A stretch of DNA of 31,825 nucleotides from an uncultured Thermotogaceae bacterium. Lineage in GTDB: Bacteria > Thermotogota > Thermotogae > Petrotogales > Kosmotogaceae. Below the pieces are notes generated by a model. That model did no database searches. It saw nothing but the letters and a program-made list of their open reading frames with translations, and had not been told where the DNA came from. Shown here one piece after another: positions 1,843 through 29,192 of the stretch. Every line of letters begins with the position of its first letter. Within the stretch, counting starts at the first letter, position 1. Location of the stretch: the NCBI GenBank assembly GCA_964529955.1, contig CAZGZM010000001.1:6510-38334 (forward strand). Direction: 5' to 3'. A program made the translations under genes and the position numbers.

Positions 1843-2928
1843 ATGAATTTAAAGGTAAATATCTGTGGACTAGAATTGAATAACCCTGTAATGCCTGCTT
1901 CAGGACCTTTGACAGGTGACTTGAATAAGATGATAAAACTTGAAAACTCCGGCTTAGGTGCAATGGTAACAAAAACTATTTCAACAAAGGCAGCTGTTGT
2001 TCCAAGGCCATGTATTGTTGGAACTAATAATTATATTCTAAATACTGAGCTATGGTCAGAATACAGTCCAGAAAAATGGGTGTCCGAGATTTTACCTGCT
2101 TATAAAGAAATTACAAAAATTCCTCTAATAATAAGCATGGGATATTCACCTGATGATCTTTCATCTCTTACTCCTAAGTTATCTCAATTTGCTGATGCAT
2201 TTGAAATATCGACTCATTATGTTTCTGAAGATCCTGATCTTTTTAAAAAAATTATTGATTCAATTAAAAACTATTCAGATAAACCCGTCTTCATAAAGTT
2301 CGATCCTACAATTCCCAGTCCGGAAAAAATGGCTCAAGCTGTTCAAAATGCCAATGGAGATGGAATTGTAATTATGAATTCACTGGGTCCTGTTTACCCA
2401 TTAAATATATCTGAAAAAAATTCTCCATTAGGAAGTTTAAATGGTTTCGGTTGGATTTCAGGTCATGTGATTAAACTACTGGCTTTAGCTCTTATTAAAA
2501 GAGTAGGAAAATCTTGTGATCTTCCTATAATAGGAGTTGGAGGAATAAGTACTTCAAAGGATGTAATAGAATTTATGATGGCTGGAGCCACCGGTGTACA
2601 GTTATTATCTTCAGCAATGATAAGGGGCAAAAAAGTATTTTCTGATATAATAAACAATTTACCTAATGAACTTAAAAAACTAGGATACAATGATATAAAT
2701 GGAATAATTGGAATAGCAAAGAATTCTAATGAAGAAGAAACCTTTATTAAAAAAACTCCAGTTATTAATCTAAGCAAATGTGTTAAATGTGGACTTTGCG
2801 TTAGAGCTTGTCCATATTATGCGTTAACAATGACTGATGAGGGCATTAAACTTAACCCTGAAGAGTGCTTCGGCTGCGGATTATGTCAGTCAAGATGCCC
2901 AACAAAGGCTATTTCTGGAGTTTTTTAA
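1843..2928 (+). CDS. Dihydroorotate/dihydropyrimidine dehydrogenase (PreA-like) FMN barrel with C-terminal 2x[4Fe-4S] domain; atypical active-site loop
   Basis: N-terminal GLELNNPVMPASGP and KTIS; PVFIK; GIVIMNS; GWISG; PIIGVGGI; AGATGVQL. Ferredoxin motifs CVKCGLCVRACP and CFGCGLCQSRCP. Confidence 0.85.
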   Translation: MNLKVNICGLELNNPVMPASGPLTGDLNKMIKLENSGLGAMVTKTISTKAAVVPRPCIVGTNNYILNTELWSEYSPEKWVSEILPAYKEITKIPLIISMGYSPDDLSSLTPKLSQFADAFEISTHYVSEDPDLFKKIIDSIKNYSDKPVFIKFDPTIPSPEKMAQAVQNANGDGIVIMNSLGPVYPLNISEKNSPLGSLNGFGWISGHVIKLLALALIKRVGKSCDLPIIGVGGISTSKDVIEFMMAGATGVQLLSSAMIRGKKVFSDIINNLPNELKKLGYNDINGIIGIAKNSNEEETFIKKTPVINLSKCVKCGLCVRACPYYALTMTDEGIKLNPEECFGCGLCQSRCPTKAISGVF

Positions 2929-2936
2929 AAACAAAG

Positions 2937-4286
2937 TTATTTTTGAACAACTTTGTTTCTACCTGATTCTTTAGCTTCATACAAGGCTTCATCAGCTATT
3001 TTTATCAGCTCATTTTCATCCTTTGCATCGTATTGAGGATATGACGTGCATCCTATACTTACAGTAAATTTTATTACCTGTTTACCATGCTGGGTGACAC
3101 TTTCTTGAATGATTCTTCTGATTCTTTCTGCTACATCTTTAGAATCCTCTTTAGAAGCACCAGGCAAAACTATCACAAATTCTTCTCCACCGTATCTGAT
3201 AACAAAATCCCCTTCTCTTAAACCGATACGAATAAATTTAGCAATGTTTCTTAAAACTTTATCGCCAACCGTATGTCCATAAGTATCATTTATGCTTTTA
3301 AAATGGTCTATATCAAACATTAGTACTCCCAGGGGCTCTCCTGTTCTTGATGATCTCTTATACTCTTCGACAAGTCTGTTCAAACCAAAATGTCTATTGT
3401 ACAATCCAGTTAATTGATCAAACGCAGCCAAAGTCTGTAGTTGATTATATGTAATTGAATTTCTTAAGGCTAAAGATAAAGTATTCAAATGCAGCTCTAA
3501 ATTTGTTTTTAAATTTGAATTAAAAGATTCCTTGAAAGCAAGTACAACTATTCCCAATGAAACATTTTTATAAGAAATTGGTTCAATTCTTATTTCATTT
3601 GGAACAAATTCCAAAAGCAATCCATCTATTTTTATTTCTTTTGGTAAATGAATGGTTTTTGATAAATTTTTGTAGTATGACTCTGTAATCAAATCATTAT
3701 TAATAAGTTTTTCAGGATTTTTAATTCCCCTTGAAGAAACTGGAACAAGCTCCCCGTTTTGTTCAATTATTAAACATCCAGCATCAGAATTCATATGTTC
3801 AAGAAGTTTATCTACTGCTTTTCTAGCTAACACTTCCAATTCAATTTGAGTTGAAAGAATTTGATTAAATTCCTTAACTTCTTTTTCTGTTTTCATAAAT
3901 CCTGATAAAGTCATTATAAGCTCGTTAAAGGAATGAGCCGATTCTCCTATTTCATCATTTGAATCCACTTCTATATAACATTCGTCATTAACGCAATCCT
4001 GTATAATTGAAGACCCCATACTATCACTAATTTTATTTTCAACTTTATTCATATGTTTAGCAAGAATACGGAGACGCTTACCAACAACAATTTTTGAGAT
4101 GAAAAAATTAAATGCCCCCACAGCTAATCCGGCTAAAATACATAAAAAGAAAAACAAGGGAGAAAGAGCGATTTCATTTGATACACCTAAAAGCATTACA
4201 AAAAATGGAAATACAATTCCTATTCCCAAACCAAAAGCTATCATAAATATGCCAAGATCCAGAAAAACCTTTTTAGTGAGCCTCAT
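2937..4286 (-). CDS. Membrane-anchored diguanylate cyclase (2 TM - HAMP - GAF-like - GGDEF)
   Basis: Two N-terminal hydrophobic helices; HAMP signature DEIGESAHSFN; DQLTGLYNR, MFDIDHFKSINDTYGHTVGD, an intact RYGGEEF active site and an RxxD inhibitory site (REGD). Confidence 0.93.
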   Translation of the reverse strand: MRLTKKVFLDLGIFMIAFGLGIGIVFPFFVMLLGVSNEIALSPLFFFLCILAGLAVGAFNFFISKIVVGKRLRILAKHMNKVENKISDSMGSSIIQDCVNDECYIEVDSNDEIGESAHSFNELIMTLSGFMKTEKEVKEFNQILSTQIELEVLARKAVDKLLEHMNSDAGCLIIEQNGELVPVSSRGIKNPEKLINNDLITESYYKNLSKTIHLPKEIKIDGLLLEFVPNEIRIEPISYKNVSLGIVVLAFKESFNSNLKTNLELHLNTLSLALRNSITYNQLQTLAAFDQLTGLYNRHFGLNRLVEEYKRSSRTGEPLGVLMFDIDHFKSINDTYGHTVGDKVLRNIAKFIRIGLREGDFVIRYGGEEFVIVLPGASKEDSKDVAERIRRIIQESVTQHGKQVIKFTVSIGCTSYPQYDAKDENELIKIADEALYEAKESGRNKVVQK

Positions 4287-4354
4287 TTTAATCTCCTTGA
4301 ATAATCAAAATAAAAAAAACCAAATAATTATAGATTTAGTTTATCATAATAAAT

Positions 4355-4384
4355 AAAAAAAAAGAGCCTGAATTACCAGGCTCT
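4355..4384 (-). terminator. Intrinsic terminator of the DUF5320 gene
   Basis: Stem AGAGCCTG (4363-4370) / CAGGCTCT (4377-4384), followed on the minus strand by a long T run. Confidence 0.8.
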
Positions 4385-4400
4385 ATATTTATAATTTTTT

Positions 4401-4631
4401 TTACCAGTCTCCGTTTCTTCTACCAAGACCTCTACCGAGACCTCTACCATATCCTCTTCCGTAACCTCTACCTAAATTTCTTCTTGGATATCTAGGTCTA
4501 ACTACATCTCTTTCATCTTCAAAATATCTTTCGTCTCTAACATCATCCCTAACATTATCATTACAATATCCTAATCTTCTACCTGTCATTGGTCCTCTTC
4601 CCTCTGGACCTCTACCATCAAATCCTGGCAT
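4401..4631 (-). CDS. DUF5320-family small Gly/Arg-rich protein
   Basis: Family N-terminus MPGFDGRGPEGRGPMTGRRLGYC; C-terminal GRGYGRGYGRGLGRGLGR repeats; strong RBS AAGGAGGTG. Confidence 0.85.
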   Translation of the reverse strand: MPGFDGRGPEGRGPMTGRRLGYCNDNVRDDVRDERYFEDERDVVRPRYPRRNLGRGYGRGYGRGLGRGLGRRNGDW

Positions 4632-4675
4632 CTTCTACACCTCCTTGAAGTATATTATATATTTATTACATATAT

Positions 4676-4704
4676 ATAATATTCCTTTTTTCCATATATG
4701 TCAA
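4676..4704 (-). promoter_or_regulatory. Sigma-70-type promoter for the DUF5320 gene
   Basis: Minus strand TTGACA (4704-4699), 17 nt, TATTAT (4681-4676). Confidence 0.6.
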
Positions 4705-24945: not shown

Positions 24946-25971
24946 TTAAAATAATACTACCGTTCTCTGTTCATGTCCTGCCGGAACAAGTGATAATTCA
25001 TTACCCAGTTCTTCTAGCGTAATCGTTTTTGTCACCAGGCATTTTAAATCCTCATGAAATGATGAAATCAAATTTGTTGCCTGCCTGAAATCCTCAATCG
25101 TTCTTCCTTCTGTGCCTGTTATTTTTACTTCTGAATAATGAATTTTATTGCAATCAATGTTCAAATCTCCGGTTGGATGCATAGAAGTATATAGAACGAT
25201 CGTGCCTACTTTTCTAACGTATTCTATTGTTTTATTTACAACGTCAATTACTGGTGCAGTTATGAATACAGCATCAAAACCAAATCCTTCGTTGATTTCA
25301 GGAAGAATTTCTTCGATTTCTTCAGGTTTAATAGCCTTAAAACCCATCTTCGATATAAAATCTCTCCTATTATCCTCAGGATCACTTATTACTGCCTTTG
25401 CTCCTCTTTTTTTTGCTAAGAAGGCATGCAGAATTCCCATTGTTCCTCCACCAATTATAAGTACCGAATCACCAAATTGTAAATCAGCTTTCTTAATACT
25501 GTGGAGACAACAGGAAAGAGGTTCAGTAAGAGCAGCCACTTTCAATGGGGTATCCCTTAATAATTTAAAAGCTTGTTTCTCCTTTACAATAGCATATTCA
25601 GAAAATCCTCCAGCGATTAAAAACTTTTCTTCAATTCTTCTTCCCTTTCTTGCATTTATACATAGATTATCCATTCCTCTGACACAGTAATAACATACTC
25701 CACATCTGTTAATAGTATCAAGAGTAACAAAATCACCCTCTTTTACTTTTTTTACTTTTTCTCCAATTTTCACTACTTCTCCAGCTGCTTCATGACCACC
25801 TATCATAGGAGTAGGAACATTTATCTTTCCTGTAAAAATTCTTCTATCTGTTGTACAAACACCACAGCTTTTCACCTTGACTAAAATTTCATTTTTCTTT
25901 AATTCAGGCATTTGAATTTCTTCGATTTCTGATTGTCCCACTTCCTTAATGATTAATGCTTTGCTCTTCAA
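24946..25971 (-). CDS. Zinc-dependent medium-chain dehydrogenase (sorbitol/L-iditol 2-dehydrogenase-like)
   Basis: CGVCTTD, GHEAAGEV, structural-Zn CGVCYYC...NLC, EPLSCCLH, Rossmann IIGGGTMG; TTG start after GGGAGTGAT. Confidence 0.9.
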   Translation of the reverse strand: MKSKALIIKEVGQSEIEEIQMPELKKNEILVKVKSCGVCTTDRRIFTGKINVPTPMIGGHEAAGEVVKIGEKVKKVKEGDFVTLDTINRCGVCYYCVRGMDNLCINARKGRRIEEKFLIAGGFSEYAIVKEKQAFKLLRDTPLKVAALTEPLSCCLHSIKKADLQFGDSVLIIGGGTMGILHAFLAKKRGAKAVISDPEDNRRDFISKMGFKAIKPEEIEEILPEINEGFGFDAVFITAPVIDVVNKTIEYVRKVGTIVLYTSMHPTGDLNIDCNKIHYSEVKITGTEGRTIEDFRQATNLISSFHEDLKCLVTKTITLEELGNELSLVPAGHEQRTVVLF

Positions 25972-26125
25972 ATCTAATCACTCCCGTATTTTTTTTCGTT
26001 TGTCATAGAATTATTTTCAGTATTACATTTTTTGACATTTTTTTCCAAATCTATTGAAAATGAATGATAAGCATTTAATCGAATTTATTTTTATTTATAT
26101 CGAATTTTCTTCGTTTTTTATAAAT

Positions 26126-26154
26126 AAAAAAAATCCCTCCTTATAAAGAGGGAT
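26126..26154 (-). terminator. Intrinsic terminator of the LruC-domain gene
   Basis: ATCCCTC (26133-26139) / GAGGGAT (26148-26154), followed by a T run on the minus strand. Confidence 0.75.
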
Positions 26155-26172
26155 ATAATAAAGAATTATTTA

Positions 26173-28125
26173 TTAATGCAGATAATTATAATTTTTATTT
26201 CCAGGCAAATCTAAATACCAATCCTGCTTACGCTGTCCTTTAGAATTTACCCATTCATTATAATTATTATAAGCTTTACTTATTTCAACATCATCCGCAG
26301 GGTAATCAAATGTCTCTGGAAGATTCAAACCCCATGGAAATTCATCTGTAGTCTTATACATATGATTTGTTCCTAAAATCGACCCATCGTCCTCTGAACC
26401 AAAATAAGGTGTCCAGATTAGATCTGTCGGTTGATAACCAGGAAGATGAATTTCTCTTCCCCTTTCTCCGTTAGCAATAATGAAAGGATTATATGGAGCA
26501 TAACCTATTTCATTTCTTGTTACAGCTCTACTGAAATTAATTGTGACGAATACTTCGATTTCTCCATCGGGATCATAATGATTATTTGCAATATCAAAAA
26601 CGATAATTACAGCCTTTGTCTGCCTTGATTCAACTCCATTTTCTTCCATATAAATTTTATCATCCCCTGTTGCCTGATATCTGTTTTCACTGCCTATAAC
26701 CGATTCAACAGAGTCTGGAGATATATTATTAAATTGAAATCCAAAACCGTTTTTCATACTTGCAACTATGGCCTTCACTTTAAATGTTCCTGTTACTTTC
26801 ACTATATCGTTATCCTTATTTAAAAACTCTTCGAAATTGTAATCGATAATAAGATCATTAAAATCATAATCTCCTCTATAAGGCCAGAGATCTTCAAAAG
26901 CTAAACTTGCAAACTGTCCTTTTCCTGGTGTACTTATGGAAGAAACTATATTATTATCGTAGGGTTCAGCATCAATAATATCTGGTATTCCATCATCGTC
27001 AGAATCTAAAGGTGGTTCATCTGTAGTCTTTACTACTTCTGTTTTTGCTATGGCGGTTATAGGATTAGATGTTACATAAAAGACAGCATCATTGAAATCA
27101 TTATCTCCTGCCGGTCTTAATAAATCTTCAAAGGAAAGAATAAGTTTATCTTCTTCTTCATAATTCAATAAAACTGTGTGATGTTTATCATTAGTATTGG
27201 ATTCTGGATTAAGCTTACTATCAGAAAAGAATTTATTGAAGCCTCCTCCTACCACATCCTGTTTAGTATTATATCCATTTGTGATTATTACCCATCCTAT
27301 AGAAGTTCCGGGATCGAATTCTCCGATATTTACCTTATCACCAGATGTCAGACCTCCACCACTCCCTTTATAAGAAACATTTGGAAATATTAAAGTTATA
27401 TCTTCATCATTGACAACATCCGGTGCACCATCAGCAGTATTATAAGTATAGAAACCTAATGAATTTTTATATCCCGCTCCTTCATGTATGAAAGTTACAA
27501 ATACATTTGCATGTTCAATAATATCAAGATTAGTTTTTGCAGAATCTGCAATATAATGAGGATTATAATCAGGAACAGGTTCTTTTTCAGGCAGAGAATT
27601 GTTAATCGTAGTTAATAAATCGGAGCTGATTAAATCTCTCTCCATTAGATAATCAGGAACACCATTTGTATCCCAGTTTCCAATTTTTTTATAGCTCATT
27701 GTATAACTTGAATCCATAAATATAATCTCGTCATCTTCTTCAACTACAACTGGATCTGAATAATCTAGAAAAAGTATGCTATCCTCTATAGCTACTAATA
27801 CTTCACTCAATCCTCCGATAAATCCTCTTTTTACGTACAACTGGTCAACATAAGTTGGAAGTGTTAGATAAGTAACTAAATTTCCATCTTCATTGGTTAC
27901 ACCAGAAAAATTTATTTTTGCATACTTCTCGCCTGTTTCAGGATGATTTTCTATTTGGTATATTTCAATTAAAACATTTGGTATTTGGGCTTTTATATCC
28001 ACCTTTACTTTTTTGGTAGTTTCATAATTAAAATCATTTAAATCATTCTCATTGTTTGGTGTCACACATCCAGTTATCACCATAGCTAAAATAACAATTG
28101 ATATTAAATATAAAAATTTTTTCAT
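26173..28125 (-). CDS. LruC domain-containing lipoprotein (DUF4114 + DUF4842/LruC C-terminal domain)
   Basis: Lipobox ITG|C; LSFEDLLRPAGDNDFNDAVF and LAFEDLWPYRGDYDFNDLIIDY repeats; YNPFII...RGREIHLPGYQPT; PWGLNLP; Ca-binding-like DSDDDGIPDIID. Confidence 0.85.
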   Translation of the reverse strand: MKKFLYLISIVILAMVITGCVTPNNENDLNDFNYETTKKVKVDIKAQIPNVLIEIYQIENHPETGEKYAKINFSGVTNEDGNLVTYLTLPTYVDQLYVKRGFIGGLSEVLVAIEDSILFLDYSDPVVVEEDDEIIFMDSSYTMSYKKIGNWDTNGVPDYLMERDLISSDLLTTINNSLPEKEPVPDYNPHYIADSAKTNLDIIEHANVFVTFIHEGAGYKNSLGFYTYNTADGAPDVVNDEDITLIFPNVSYKGSGGGLTSGDKVNIGEFDPGTSIGWVIITNGYNTKQDVVGGGFNKFFSDSKLNPESNTNDKHHTVLLNYEEEDKLILSFEDLLRPAGDNDFNDAVFYVTSNPITAIAKTEVVKTTDEPPLDSDDDGIPDIIDAEPYDNNIVSSISTPGKGQFASLAFEDLWPYRGDYDFNDLIIDYNFEEFLNKDNDIVKVTGTFKVKAIVASMKNGFGFQFNNISPDSVESVIGSENRYQATGDDKIYMEENGVESRQTKAVIIVFDIANNHYDPDGEIEVFVTINFSRAVTRNEIGYAPYNPFIIANGERGREIHLPGYQPTDLIWTPYFGSEDDGSILGTNHMYKTTDEFPWGLNLPETFDYPADDVEISKAYNNYNEWVNSKGQRKQDWYLDLPGNKNYNYLH

Positions 28126-28162
28126 TCAATCACTCTCCTTTTGTTCATTCTTAAAGAACTAT

Positions 28163-28178
28163 AGCAATATTATGCCAA
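28163..28178 (-). promoter_or_regulatory. Sigma-54-like motif copy 1 (probable LruC gene promoter)
   Basis: Minus strand TTGGCATA-ATA-TTGCT; GG-N9-GC instead of canonical GG-N10-GC. Predicted start near 28152, 27 nt above the ATG. Confidence 0.55.
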
Positions 28179-28190
28179 AAAAAATGAGGA

Positions 28191-28214
28191 AACCCCTCTA
28201 GGGCAAGAGGGGTT
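28191..28214 (-). terminator. Strong hairpin between motif copies 2 and 1
   Basis: AACCCCTCT / AGAGGGGTT 9-bp stem. The T8 run follows 6 nt later on the minus strand, so this is not a textbook terminator. Confidence 0.55.
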
Positions 28215-28306
28215 AGGGGTAAATCAGTAGCAAAAAAATGAGGTTACTTTCTGTAGTATCTCTAGTCTTGAAAGATTTTTAGACTAAAGGTCGATTAATT
28301 AGTAGA

Positions 28307-28322
28307 TGCAACTTCGTGCCAA
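28307..28322 (-). promoter_or_regulatory. Sigma-54-like motif copy 2
   Basis: Minus strand TTGGCACG-AAG-TTGCA; same N9 spacing. Confidence 0.55.
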
Positions 28323-28335
28323 TATTAAAATCTAT

Positions 28336-28370
28336 AAAAAAAATCCTCTTCCCGGGGTGTGGAAGAGGAT
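28336..28370 (-). terminator. Intrinsic terminator between motif copies 3 and 2
   Basis: ATCCTCTTCC (28343-28352) / GGAAGAGGAT (28361-28370) perfect 10-bp stem, directly followed by a T run on the minus strand. Confidence 0.8.
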
Positions 28371-28432
28371 AAGTTTATAAAGGGGGGTATCTTATAAAAA
28401 AGTTTCTGTTAGTTCGTTCTCAGTTATTTATA

Positions 28433-28448
28433 TGCAATGGTATGCCAA
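28433..28448 (-). promoter_or_regulatory. Sigma-54-like motif copy 3
   Basis: Minus strand TTGGCATA-CCA-TTGCA; same N9 spacing. Confidence 0.55.
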
Positions 28449-28523
28449 CTTTATTATTTTTTCTTTTTCTATTTTATGTAAAATGATATAATATGCATAT
28501 TTAAACAATTATGGAGGAACACT

Positions 28524-29192
28524 ATGAATATAATTGAATCAATTAAAACAAGACATTCTACAAGATCATTTATTGAAGAAAGAATATCGAGCAGCAAATT
28601 ACGTGAAATCAATTCCATATTAAGTGATGTACAACCAATACAAAAAGAGAATATTGTTTGGACTATAGAAAAGGATGATAAAAGAACAGGAAGATTTTAT
28701 GCTCAGGTTGACAATGATTGGGAATCATATTGTTCTTATGGTTTTCAGGGGGAACAAATAATTTTAAAACTCACTCAGTTAGAATTTGATACTCTTTGGA
28801 AAGCTCTTGGAGGTCATAAACCTGCTGAAATACTTTTTGGCCACGGAAAGAAAAGAAGCTTGAAGGCTTCTTTTTCTGGTATATTTACAGGAAATGGAAG
28901 AAGAAAATCTCTTGAATCATTTTTGATGAAAGATGTTTCAAACATTTCCCCCCTTGCAGTTGAATGCTTTGAACTTTGTAGATTGTCTCCCTCAGGTATG
29001 AATAAGCAACCATGGAAATTTGATGAAGTGGAAGGAAACATTGTTATTGAAGTAACAGGAAGATCCTTGCTCAACGCTGTTGACTTTGGAATAGTGATTT
29101 CACACGCATACTTATATCTAAAGGAAGCGGGGAAAGAGATTTCACTTTTTTTTGAAAACGATTACAAATGCATAATAAAACTGGAGGATTAA
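28524..29192 (+). CDS. Nitroreductase-family protein (TM1586-like)
   Basis: IKTRHSTRSF, YGFQGEQIILKLTQLEFDTLW, RLSPSGMNKQPWKF, VDFGIVISH; RBS GGAGG. Confidence 0.85.
   Translation: MNIIESIKTRHSTRSFIEERISSSKLREINSILSDVQPIQKENIVWTIEKDDKRTGRFYAQVDNDWESYCSYGFQGEQIILKLTQLEFDTLWKALGGHKPAEILFGHGKKRSLKASFSGIFTGNGRRKSLESFLMKDVSNISPLAVECFELCRLSPSGMNKQPWKFDEVEGNIVIEVTGRSLLNAVDFGIVISHAYLYLKEAGKEISLFFENDYKCIIKLED

Follow-up and report, generated by a model that had tools for sequence, protein, structure and literature searches.

Small RNAs transcribed from sigma-54-dependent promoters are represented by Qrr1-5 of Vibrio and by GlmY/GlmZ of Enterobacteria. Small-RNA genes may also stand in tandem as recognisable paralogues, as at the PrrF1/PrrF2 locus of Pseudomonas, OmrA/OmrB of E. 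coli and LhrC1-4 of Listeria. A further class, C-rich RNAs directed against Shine-Dalgarno sequences, includes RsaE/RoxS and the UCCC loops of RNAIII from S. aureus. To our knowledge, almost no regulatory RNAs have been characterised in Thermotogota. The candidate described here, RNA 2, lies with a neighbor, RNA 1, upstream of a surface-lipoprotein gene, lruC.

The RNA 2 unit resembles the Qrr and GlmY/GlmZ systems in that a short non-coding RNA, ending in a hairpin and a U-run, follows an activator-needing -24/-12 promoter, in its multi-copy arrangement, and in that Hfq is encoded in the same genome. It differs in its Thermotogota host, in the GG-N9-GC spacing of its promoter, and in the lack of sequence or structure homology to those RNAs (Rfam searches were negative), of a cross-species seed and of predicted targets; its expression is a prediction. 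As in the PrrF, Omr and LhrC loci, two promoter-RNA-terminator units with the same promoter type are placed head to tail, but RNA 1 and RNA 2 are not recognisable as paralogues, and the array is stacked on the promoter of a protein gene. The unpaired C-rich patches of RNA 2 (ACCCCU, the loop UGCCCU, and two copies of CCUCA), set against the G-rich ribosome-binding sites of the genome, recall RsaE/RoxS and RNAIII; unlike those, RNA 2 pairs with translation starts no better than shuffled sequences do, and RNA 1 is much the better fit to the class. The last comparison is with transcription attenuators and leader terminators, as a weak-looking hairpin and U-run lie between an upstream promoter and lruC. 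RNA 2, unlike attenuators, shows no anti-terminator, known aptamer or leader peptide, and a further lruC promoter lies downstream of its terminator.

The genome is a 2.44-Mb assembly of 30.7% GC in 337 contigs. In the window, by which we mean the whole 31,825-nucleotide stretch of DNA analysed, all three promoters (P1, P2 and P3) and both RNAs occupy a 398-bp gap between two divergent genes. The features of the region are as follows.

26173-28125, minus strand: lruC-like lipoprotein gene, with DUF4114 and DUF4842 (LruC) domains
about 28152 to 28126, minus strand: lruC 5' UTR, with Shine-Dalgarno sequence AAGGAGAG
28164-28178, minus strand: P3, the lruC promoter, TTGGCATAATATTGC, with the same GG-N9-GC spacing as P2
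28308-28322, minus strand: P2, called motif copy 2 in a preliminary description of this DNA, TTGGCACGAAGTTGC, a sigma-54-type -24/-12 element, GG-N9-GC
28335-28448, minus strand: unit 1, comprising P1 (28448-28434), RNA 1 (about 28422-28335) and a strong terminator, T1 (28370-28343 plus U8)
28524-29192, plus strand: TM1586-type nitroreductase gene

P2, TTGGCACGAAGTTGCAT, contains the conserved GG and GC doublets of TGGCAC...TTGCW. A pattern search for TGGCAY-N5-TGC finds three sites in the window, where 0.17 would be expected, with all three in the lruC-nitroreductase intergenic region; all three copies fit TGGCAY-N4-TTGC. By a weight matrix trained on nine other ORF-proximal sites, with the three local sites excluded, P1 falls within the best 7 positions genome-wide, P3 within the best 8, and P2 within the best 13.

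The distance from GG to GC is 9 bases at P1, P2, P3, and every ORF-proximal site of the genome, not the canonical 10; the sigma-54 consensus attributed to Barrios and colleagues in 1999 is said to have exactly 10 bases between the doublets. The pattern [TA]GGCA-N5-TTGC occurs at 18 sites in the genome. Fourteen of these are non-coding, most of them 20-60 nt 5' of a ribosome-binding site and start codon, and three of the 14 lie in front of pilin-like genes. When the doublets are 8, 10 or 11 bases apart, the sites found in the same genome fall nearly all within ORFs. Across 25 genomes of the family, the short-spacing GG-N9-GC pattern has 227 sites, against 28 for the reversed control, while the canonical-spacing pattern has 107 against 45. 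The motif is kept before orthologous pilin, protein-kinase and C39-like genes in two genomes of the same genus. The sigma factor itself is encoded (rpoN, with a Sigma54_DBD profile match of 122 bits on contig C49), as are at least two good enhancer-binding activators (Sigma54_activat matches on C25 and C81). The sigma-54 protein of the genome shows 81% identity to one labelled "Kosmotogales bacterium" and 47-48% to those of Kosmotoga pacifica and Mesotoga, which places its uncultured host in the Kosmotogaceae (Thermotogota).

From the non-coding bias, the enrichment in the family, the retention before orthologs, the presence of rpoN and activators, and the promoters of lruC homologues described below, we conclude that the GG-N9-GC motif is a genuine functional promoter class in the family Kosmotogaceae. 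Its dependence on sigma-54 in this family is predicted. The predicted sigma-54 promoters of Kosmotogaceae fall one base short of the universal consensus, which we rank as more remarkable than RNA 2; the RNA 2 unit adds support to this family-wide spacing, the more interesting observation.

One genus, g5, seems to favour the canonical spacing (28 sites vs 0 for the control). The 384-residue sigma-54 of the genome studied here (G000:C49, L001:1000-2154, minus strand) lacks about 11 residues that the sigma-54 chain of PDB 7qxi has between the helix-turn-helix that reads the -12 element and the RpoN box that reads the -24 element. This gap of about 11 residues may be a structural reason for the shorter promoter spacing.

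P3 sits 53 nt from the lruC ATG, and homologues of lruC elsewhere have a -24/-12 promoter that is equally far from theirs. At loci L043, L077, L078 and L079 this promoter has the canonical GG-N10-GC form and lies about 45 nt upstream of the ATG; the Mesotoga-like homologues of G017 and L041 each have one GG-N9-GC promoter in the corresponding place. A gene for an NtrC-type activator adjoins the lruC homologue in all four of the loci with canonical spacing. By these comparisons lruC appears to be a widely conserved sigma-54 target, and we rank this link, too, as more remarkable than RNA 2. Because the homologues bear a -24/-12 promoter at the same position, P3 is the ancestral lruC promoter, and P1 and P2 are extra copies found only in this species. 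A separate response-regulator gene lies upstream in three of the four loci (L043, L077 and L078). The DNA of RNA 2 was also considered as a homologue of the region upstream of lruC in G017 and L041, and was rejected as such; the promoter motif alone aligns.

We infer from its sequence that P2 fires. By the established geometry of sigma-54 promoters, it would give an RNA with these parts.

28296 +/- 2, minus strand: predicted start of RNA 2, 12 nt past the C in the GC of the -12 element
28260-28289, minus strand: hairpin H1, a 9-bp stem (CUUUAGUCU/AGACUAGAG) with a 12-nt loop, in both the MFE and the centroid fold
28215-28259, minus strand: linker of 45 nt, C/U-rich and mostly unpaired in the centroid fold, with ACAGAAA, the first copy of CCUCAUUUUUUU, and UUUACCCCU
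28191-28214, minus strand: terminator stem T2, the 3' hairpin, AACCCCUCU-UGCCCU-AGAGGGGUU, dG -14.6 kcal/mol
28177-28190, minus strand: tail, UCCUCA plus U8, with the second copy of CCUCAUUUUUUU

Every minus-strand feature listed in the preliminary description is present at 28177-28296, and these features exceed chance. What was described as a UAGUCU/AGACUA hairpin is the H1 stem of 9 bp, in which 28289-28281 pairs with 28268-28260 (dG -7.9 kcal/mol for H1 alone). The sequence reported as duplicated is an exact 12-nt direct repeat (plus-strand positions 28232-28243 and 28178-28189, repeat family D3), a duplication not kept exactly in the sister strains L039 and L040. The tandem ACCCCU-AACCCCU is found at 28220-28208, the 9-bp hairpin with loop UGCCCU at 28214-28191, and ACAGAAA, which was said to be common to both RNAs, does occur in both. 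The 118-nt stretch folds with a dG of -27.0 kcal/mol (z = -3.64), a value equaled by one of 200 shuffles. RNA 2 contains no ATG and no ORF of 40 or more residues on the minus strand. Two other candidate signals were rejected: a small peptide (no ATG, and a single TTG whose frame runs for 6 codons and lacks a Shine-Dalgarno sequence) and the C-over-G skew of RNA 2 (+14, equaled by 15% of random windows). As far as sequence can tell, the proposal of an RNA unit of about 120 nt before the lruC promoter survives as a non-coding, structured stretch of about 115 nt with a terminal hairpin and U-run, conserved in sister strains. The two roles proposed for it, as a sibling of RNA 1 or as a switch, are not supported.

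The interpretation we prefer, held tentatively and at somewhat less than an even chance, is that 28322-28177 (minus strand) is a small, lineage-specific sigma-54-type transcription unit, which makes a structured RNA of about 105-118 nt and terminates leakily before P3. P2, predicted to require an activator, would start the RNA near 28296. The RNA, having no reading frame, would fold into H1, an open C/U-rich linker of 45 nt, and the stable T2 hairpin. Transcription would mostly end at T2 or just past it, giving the predicted 3' end, and a fraction of the P2 transcripts would cross the leaky terminator and P3 to enter lruC as an mRNA with a long leader. The short RNA would most likely be a trans-acting regulator, co-induced with lruC and RNA 1. 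If the product is the short RNA, it is understandable that a terminator should stand right before the promoter of lruC itself. The promoter type, the fold, the absence of coding potential, the conservation, the context of unit 1, and the presence of Hfq favor this small-RNA interpretation. It is weakened by the reliance on three sequences with no covariation among them, by recombination, by the lack of homologues and of a target signal, and by the sub-standard terminator and non-canonical promoter spacing.

T2 has the form of a GC-rich stem with a loop of 3-8 nt (9 bp, 5 GC pairs, loop of 6), and its computed pair probability is at least 0.97 for eight of the nine pairs, with 0.74 for the end pair. 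A terminator scan flags it as one of three terminator-like sites in 27900-28700, where 0.2 would be expected. The U-run is set off from the stem: UU(U)CCUCA precedes U8, leaving a 6-nt gap, UCCUCA. In the d'Aubenton-Carafa scheme, a distance-weighted U-count, the tail of T2 scores 1.7-3.1 and that of T1 scores 5.4. In L039 and L040 the tail reads UCCUCAUUAUUUA and its U-run UUAUUUA, so that U8 is broken. Because UCCUCA separates the U-run from the stem, and because U8 is broken in the sister strains, T2 is probably a weak, leaky terminator. Partial read-through from P2 into lruC would then be likely.

Such a terminator, with its 6-nt gap, low tail score and interrupted U-run, would also suit an arrangement in which P2 is a second, upstream promoter for lruC, and T2 a constitutively leaky or factor-controlled attenuator. 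The product would then be an lruC mRNA with a structured leader of 171 nt, and the short RNA a by-product. We regard this as possible, though rather unlikely. In its favor, the RNA block and lruC share their presence or absence when the sister species L076 is the reference, and RNA 2 gives no trans-target signal; another sigma-54 promoter of the genome, on contig C202, also has a leader of about 185 nt, and the lruC promoter of L041 (TAATTTTGGCACG...TTGCAT) is closer to P2 than to P3, a difference that is not significant. However, lruC has its own promoter, whose position is conserved in all homologues, and in the read-through fold the Shine-Dalgarno sequence of lruC is only weakly sequestered, being unpaired in the centroid. 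No alternative structure was found that could serve as a switch. The hairpin previously proposed to compete with T2, GAGGG-GUU-UCCUC directly before A and U8, is present as sequence, but at -3.6 kcal/mol its equilibrium probability is about 1e-7, and the T2 hairpin is complete before the competing 3' strand is transcribed. The claim of a switchable leader is not supported by this comparison; of the claimed read-through into lruC, a constitutive partial form is plausible given the weak terminator, while structural switching is not. A riboswitch had also been suggested as something to look for, and neither that nor any leader family emerged: an Rfam search of the whole window at gathering thresholds gave no matches, and a permissive search of 27900-28700, to E of 10, gave nothing on RNA 2.

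The C202 promoter has an unusual setting. On the minus strand of that contig of G000, at about 3340-3500, approximately 100 nt of 7-nt repeats (CACCAAT/CACGACT/CACCACT) lie directly 5' of a strong sigma-54-type promoter, which is followed by the leader and then by a CheB/CheR-like gene.

The last U of the RNA 2 tail is the T of TGGCA in P3, so that the U-run overlaps the promoter (TTTTTTTTGGCAT). Because the terminator U-run is in this way the upstream edge of P3, a more speculative scheme can be drawn, which we judge very improbable: sigma-54 holoenzyme parked at P3 would act as a roadblock, forcing termination of the P2 transcript and so yielding the small RNA. The closed complex at P3 would block, and when P3 had been fired by its activator or stood empty, polymerase from P2 would read into lruC. 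The locus would then carry a terminator controlled by promoter occupancy, within a horizontally mobile cassette of two small RNAs plus lruC.

Conservation could be judged from three near-identical sequences, namely the window and L039 and L040, metagenomic contigs of close relatives whose LruC is 94% identical to that of the window. Between the window and L039, P2, RNA 2 and the preceding spacer are identical at 136 of 136 positions, while identity is 86% for lruC, 89% for the alcohol dehydrogenase gene, 84% for the nitroreductase gene, and 53% for the lruC leader. Between the window and L040, 105 nt show 8 differences, roughly half of what the background rate would give. All 8 are among the 69 unpaired positions and none among the 36 paired ones, so that each of the 18 base pairs is kept; the last 47 nt before the tail are free of change. 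Four of the differences are in the H1 loop, one of these a 1-nt deletion, and four are in the linker. We estimate the hypergeometric probability of finding 0 of 8 changes in stems at about 0.03. In the sister strains the second copy of the 12-mer reads CCUCAUUAUUUA, and the first copy is one U shorter. The H1 and T2 stems are invariant in three strains. Among these no covariation or compensatory change is seen, which leaves the structure neither proven nor contradicted.

Downstream of P3, L039 and L040 share 99.9% identity; in the 5' 65 nt of RNA 2 they nevertheless show 8 differences, and at these L039 matches the window (28232-28295). This pattern points to an exchange between strains with a breakpoint in or near RNA 2. 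Recombination between strains could give the observed conservation, which is accordingly not clean evidence of selection, and the comparison of the window with L040 is more honest than that with L039.

Alternatively, RNA 2 itself could have no function, its DNA being either a relic of promoter duplication or of insertion of an lruC cassette, or else a site for binding the activator of P3. This is unlikely in our view. Confinement of the unit to one species would fit it, as would the absence of covariation and of a target signal and an origin of the apparent conservation in recombination between strains, and the inverted repeat of H1 is centred, by its coordinates, about 120 bp upstream of the P3 start, a typical enhancer distance. 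However, the H1 dyad is unique in the genome; a search upstream of the 14 sigma-54-type promoters found no activator-binding dyad that the other 13 share, and neither P1 nor P2 has an equivalent dyad at a matching distance. The change of 1 nt in its spacer in L040 would be poorly tolerated by a dimer site and harmless to a loop, and so argues, mildly, for an RNA hairpin over a protein-binding DNA dyad. P2, moreover, is near the family consensus and 100% identical in L039, and a GC-rich stem with a U-run is the signature of a terminator, not of an enhancer.

The small-RNA interpretation leaves the relation of RNA 2 to RNA 1 to be considered. The preliminary description proposed a paralogous sibling arisen by duplication. 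As a diverged duplicate of RNA 1, RNA 2 might act in the same way, with C-rich loops that block ribosome-binding sites. The two do share an architecture, in promoter type, hairpin, C-rich unpaired stretch, and terminator with a C-rich loop, and the order of ACAGAAA, a U-run and UACCCC is common to both, a correspondence that is statistically indistinguishable from chance. Their similarity proves to be at chance level: the local alignment score is 16 (shuffle mean 15), and 137 of 1000 shuffles match the score of the global one. The covariance model of RNA 2, R1, run against its own genome (G000), finds RNA 2 itself and no paralogue, RNA 1 included. Descent of RNA 2 from RNA 1 with a shared mode of action is quite improbable, since the two also diverge in their pairing with translation starts.

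The open region of RNA 1 reaches a minimum of -33 kcal/mol against translation starts, compared to -20 to -26 for shuffles, and RNA 2 shows no such excess. With 2028 putative translation starts as targets, a crude method gives the RNA 2 linker a minimum of -26.6 kcal/mol, within the -24.9 to -30.8 of shuffles. The best BLAST matches of RNA 2 are 14-15 nt long, with E of at least 0.2. Duplex predictions using the whole RNA against the 2028 starts were set aside as uninformative, as long loops are allowed and the mean equals that of the shuffles. The lruC gene ranks 1788th of 2028 in duplex predictions and is not a predicted target of either RNA. In RNA 1, by comparison, nt 22-46 (window 28377-28401) are complementary at 23 of 25 positions to G000:C89:1381-1405 (BLAST E = 0.009), a match that covers the Shine-Dalgarno sequence and start codon of a gene for a 415-residue ABC solute-binding protein. 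Unit 1, with its strong terminator and this complementarity to the start of a gene's translation, has the look of a genuine small RNA. The other top predicted targets of RNA 1 include the gene behind the C25 sigma-54 promoter.

No homologue of RNA 2 was found in 60 Thermotogae genomes by blastn or by covariance model. The blastn matches of the intergenic region to these relatives consist of AT-rich low-complexity sequence alone. The best foreign matches to model R1, with per-genome E of 0.02-0.1, were not credible where inspected: one falls inside an ornithine carbamoyltransferase gene, in antisense orientation, and the other, judged to be chance, has an unrelated setting and lacks a -24/-12 motif upstream. 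A degenerate pattern scan of JGI metagenomes matched the L040 contig alone. Across the genomes and metagenomes searched, then, the RNA 2 unit is confined to one species. The lruC gene itself occurs in just two of 61 related genomes. In the sister species L076, the alcohol dehydrogenase and nitroreductase genes are directly adjacent (2737-4678, corresponding to window 24946-29192), so that RNA 1, RNA 2 and lruC together form a block inserted or lost in a lineage-specific manner. L076 keeps the dehydrogenase promoter region and is missing a 2.4-kb block of lruC, three promoters and two RNAs.

If expressed, RNA 1 and RNA 2 would rank as the first candidates for sigma-54-controlled small RNAs in Thermotogota, and a surface-lipoprotein gene would be seen to travel in company with RNAs that regulate it. 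As matters stand, RNA 2 is a candidate restricted to one species and with no target, and its value is mainly as a well-defined test case, one that supplies exact predictions of start, stop and promoter for transcript mapping.

An apparent tandem pair of promoters in another genome, at G005:C1:2298018-2298166 (L050), was rejected as an RNA unit; it is a plain, exact 134-bp tandem duplication that takes in a sigma-54-type promoter and the first codons of an aminotransferase-like gene. Contig C45 of G000 (minus strand, about 3000-3321) has a sigma-54-type promoter, AGGCATATAGTTGCT, and after it an ORF-free stretch of more than 500 nt, which could be another non-coding transcript or, with a run of N nearby, a misassembly.
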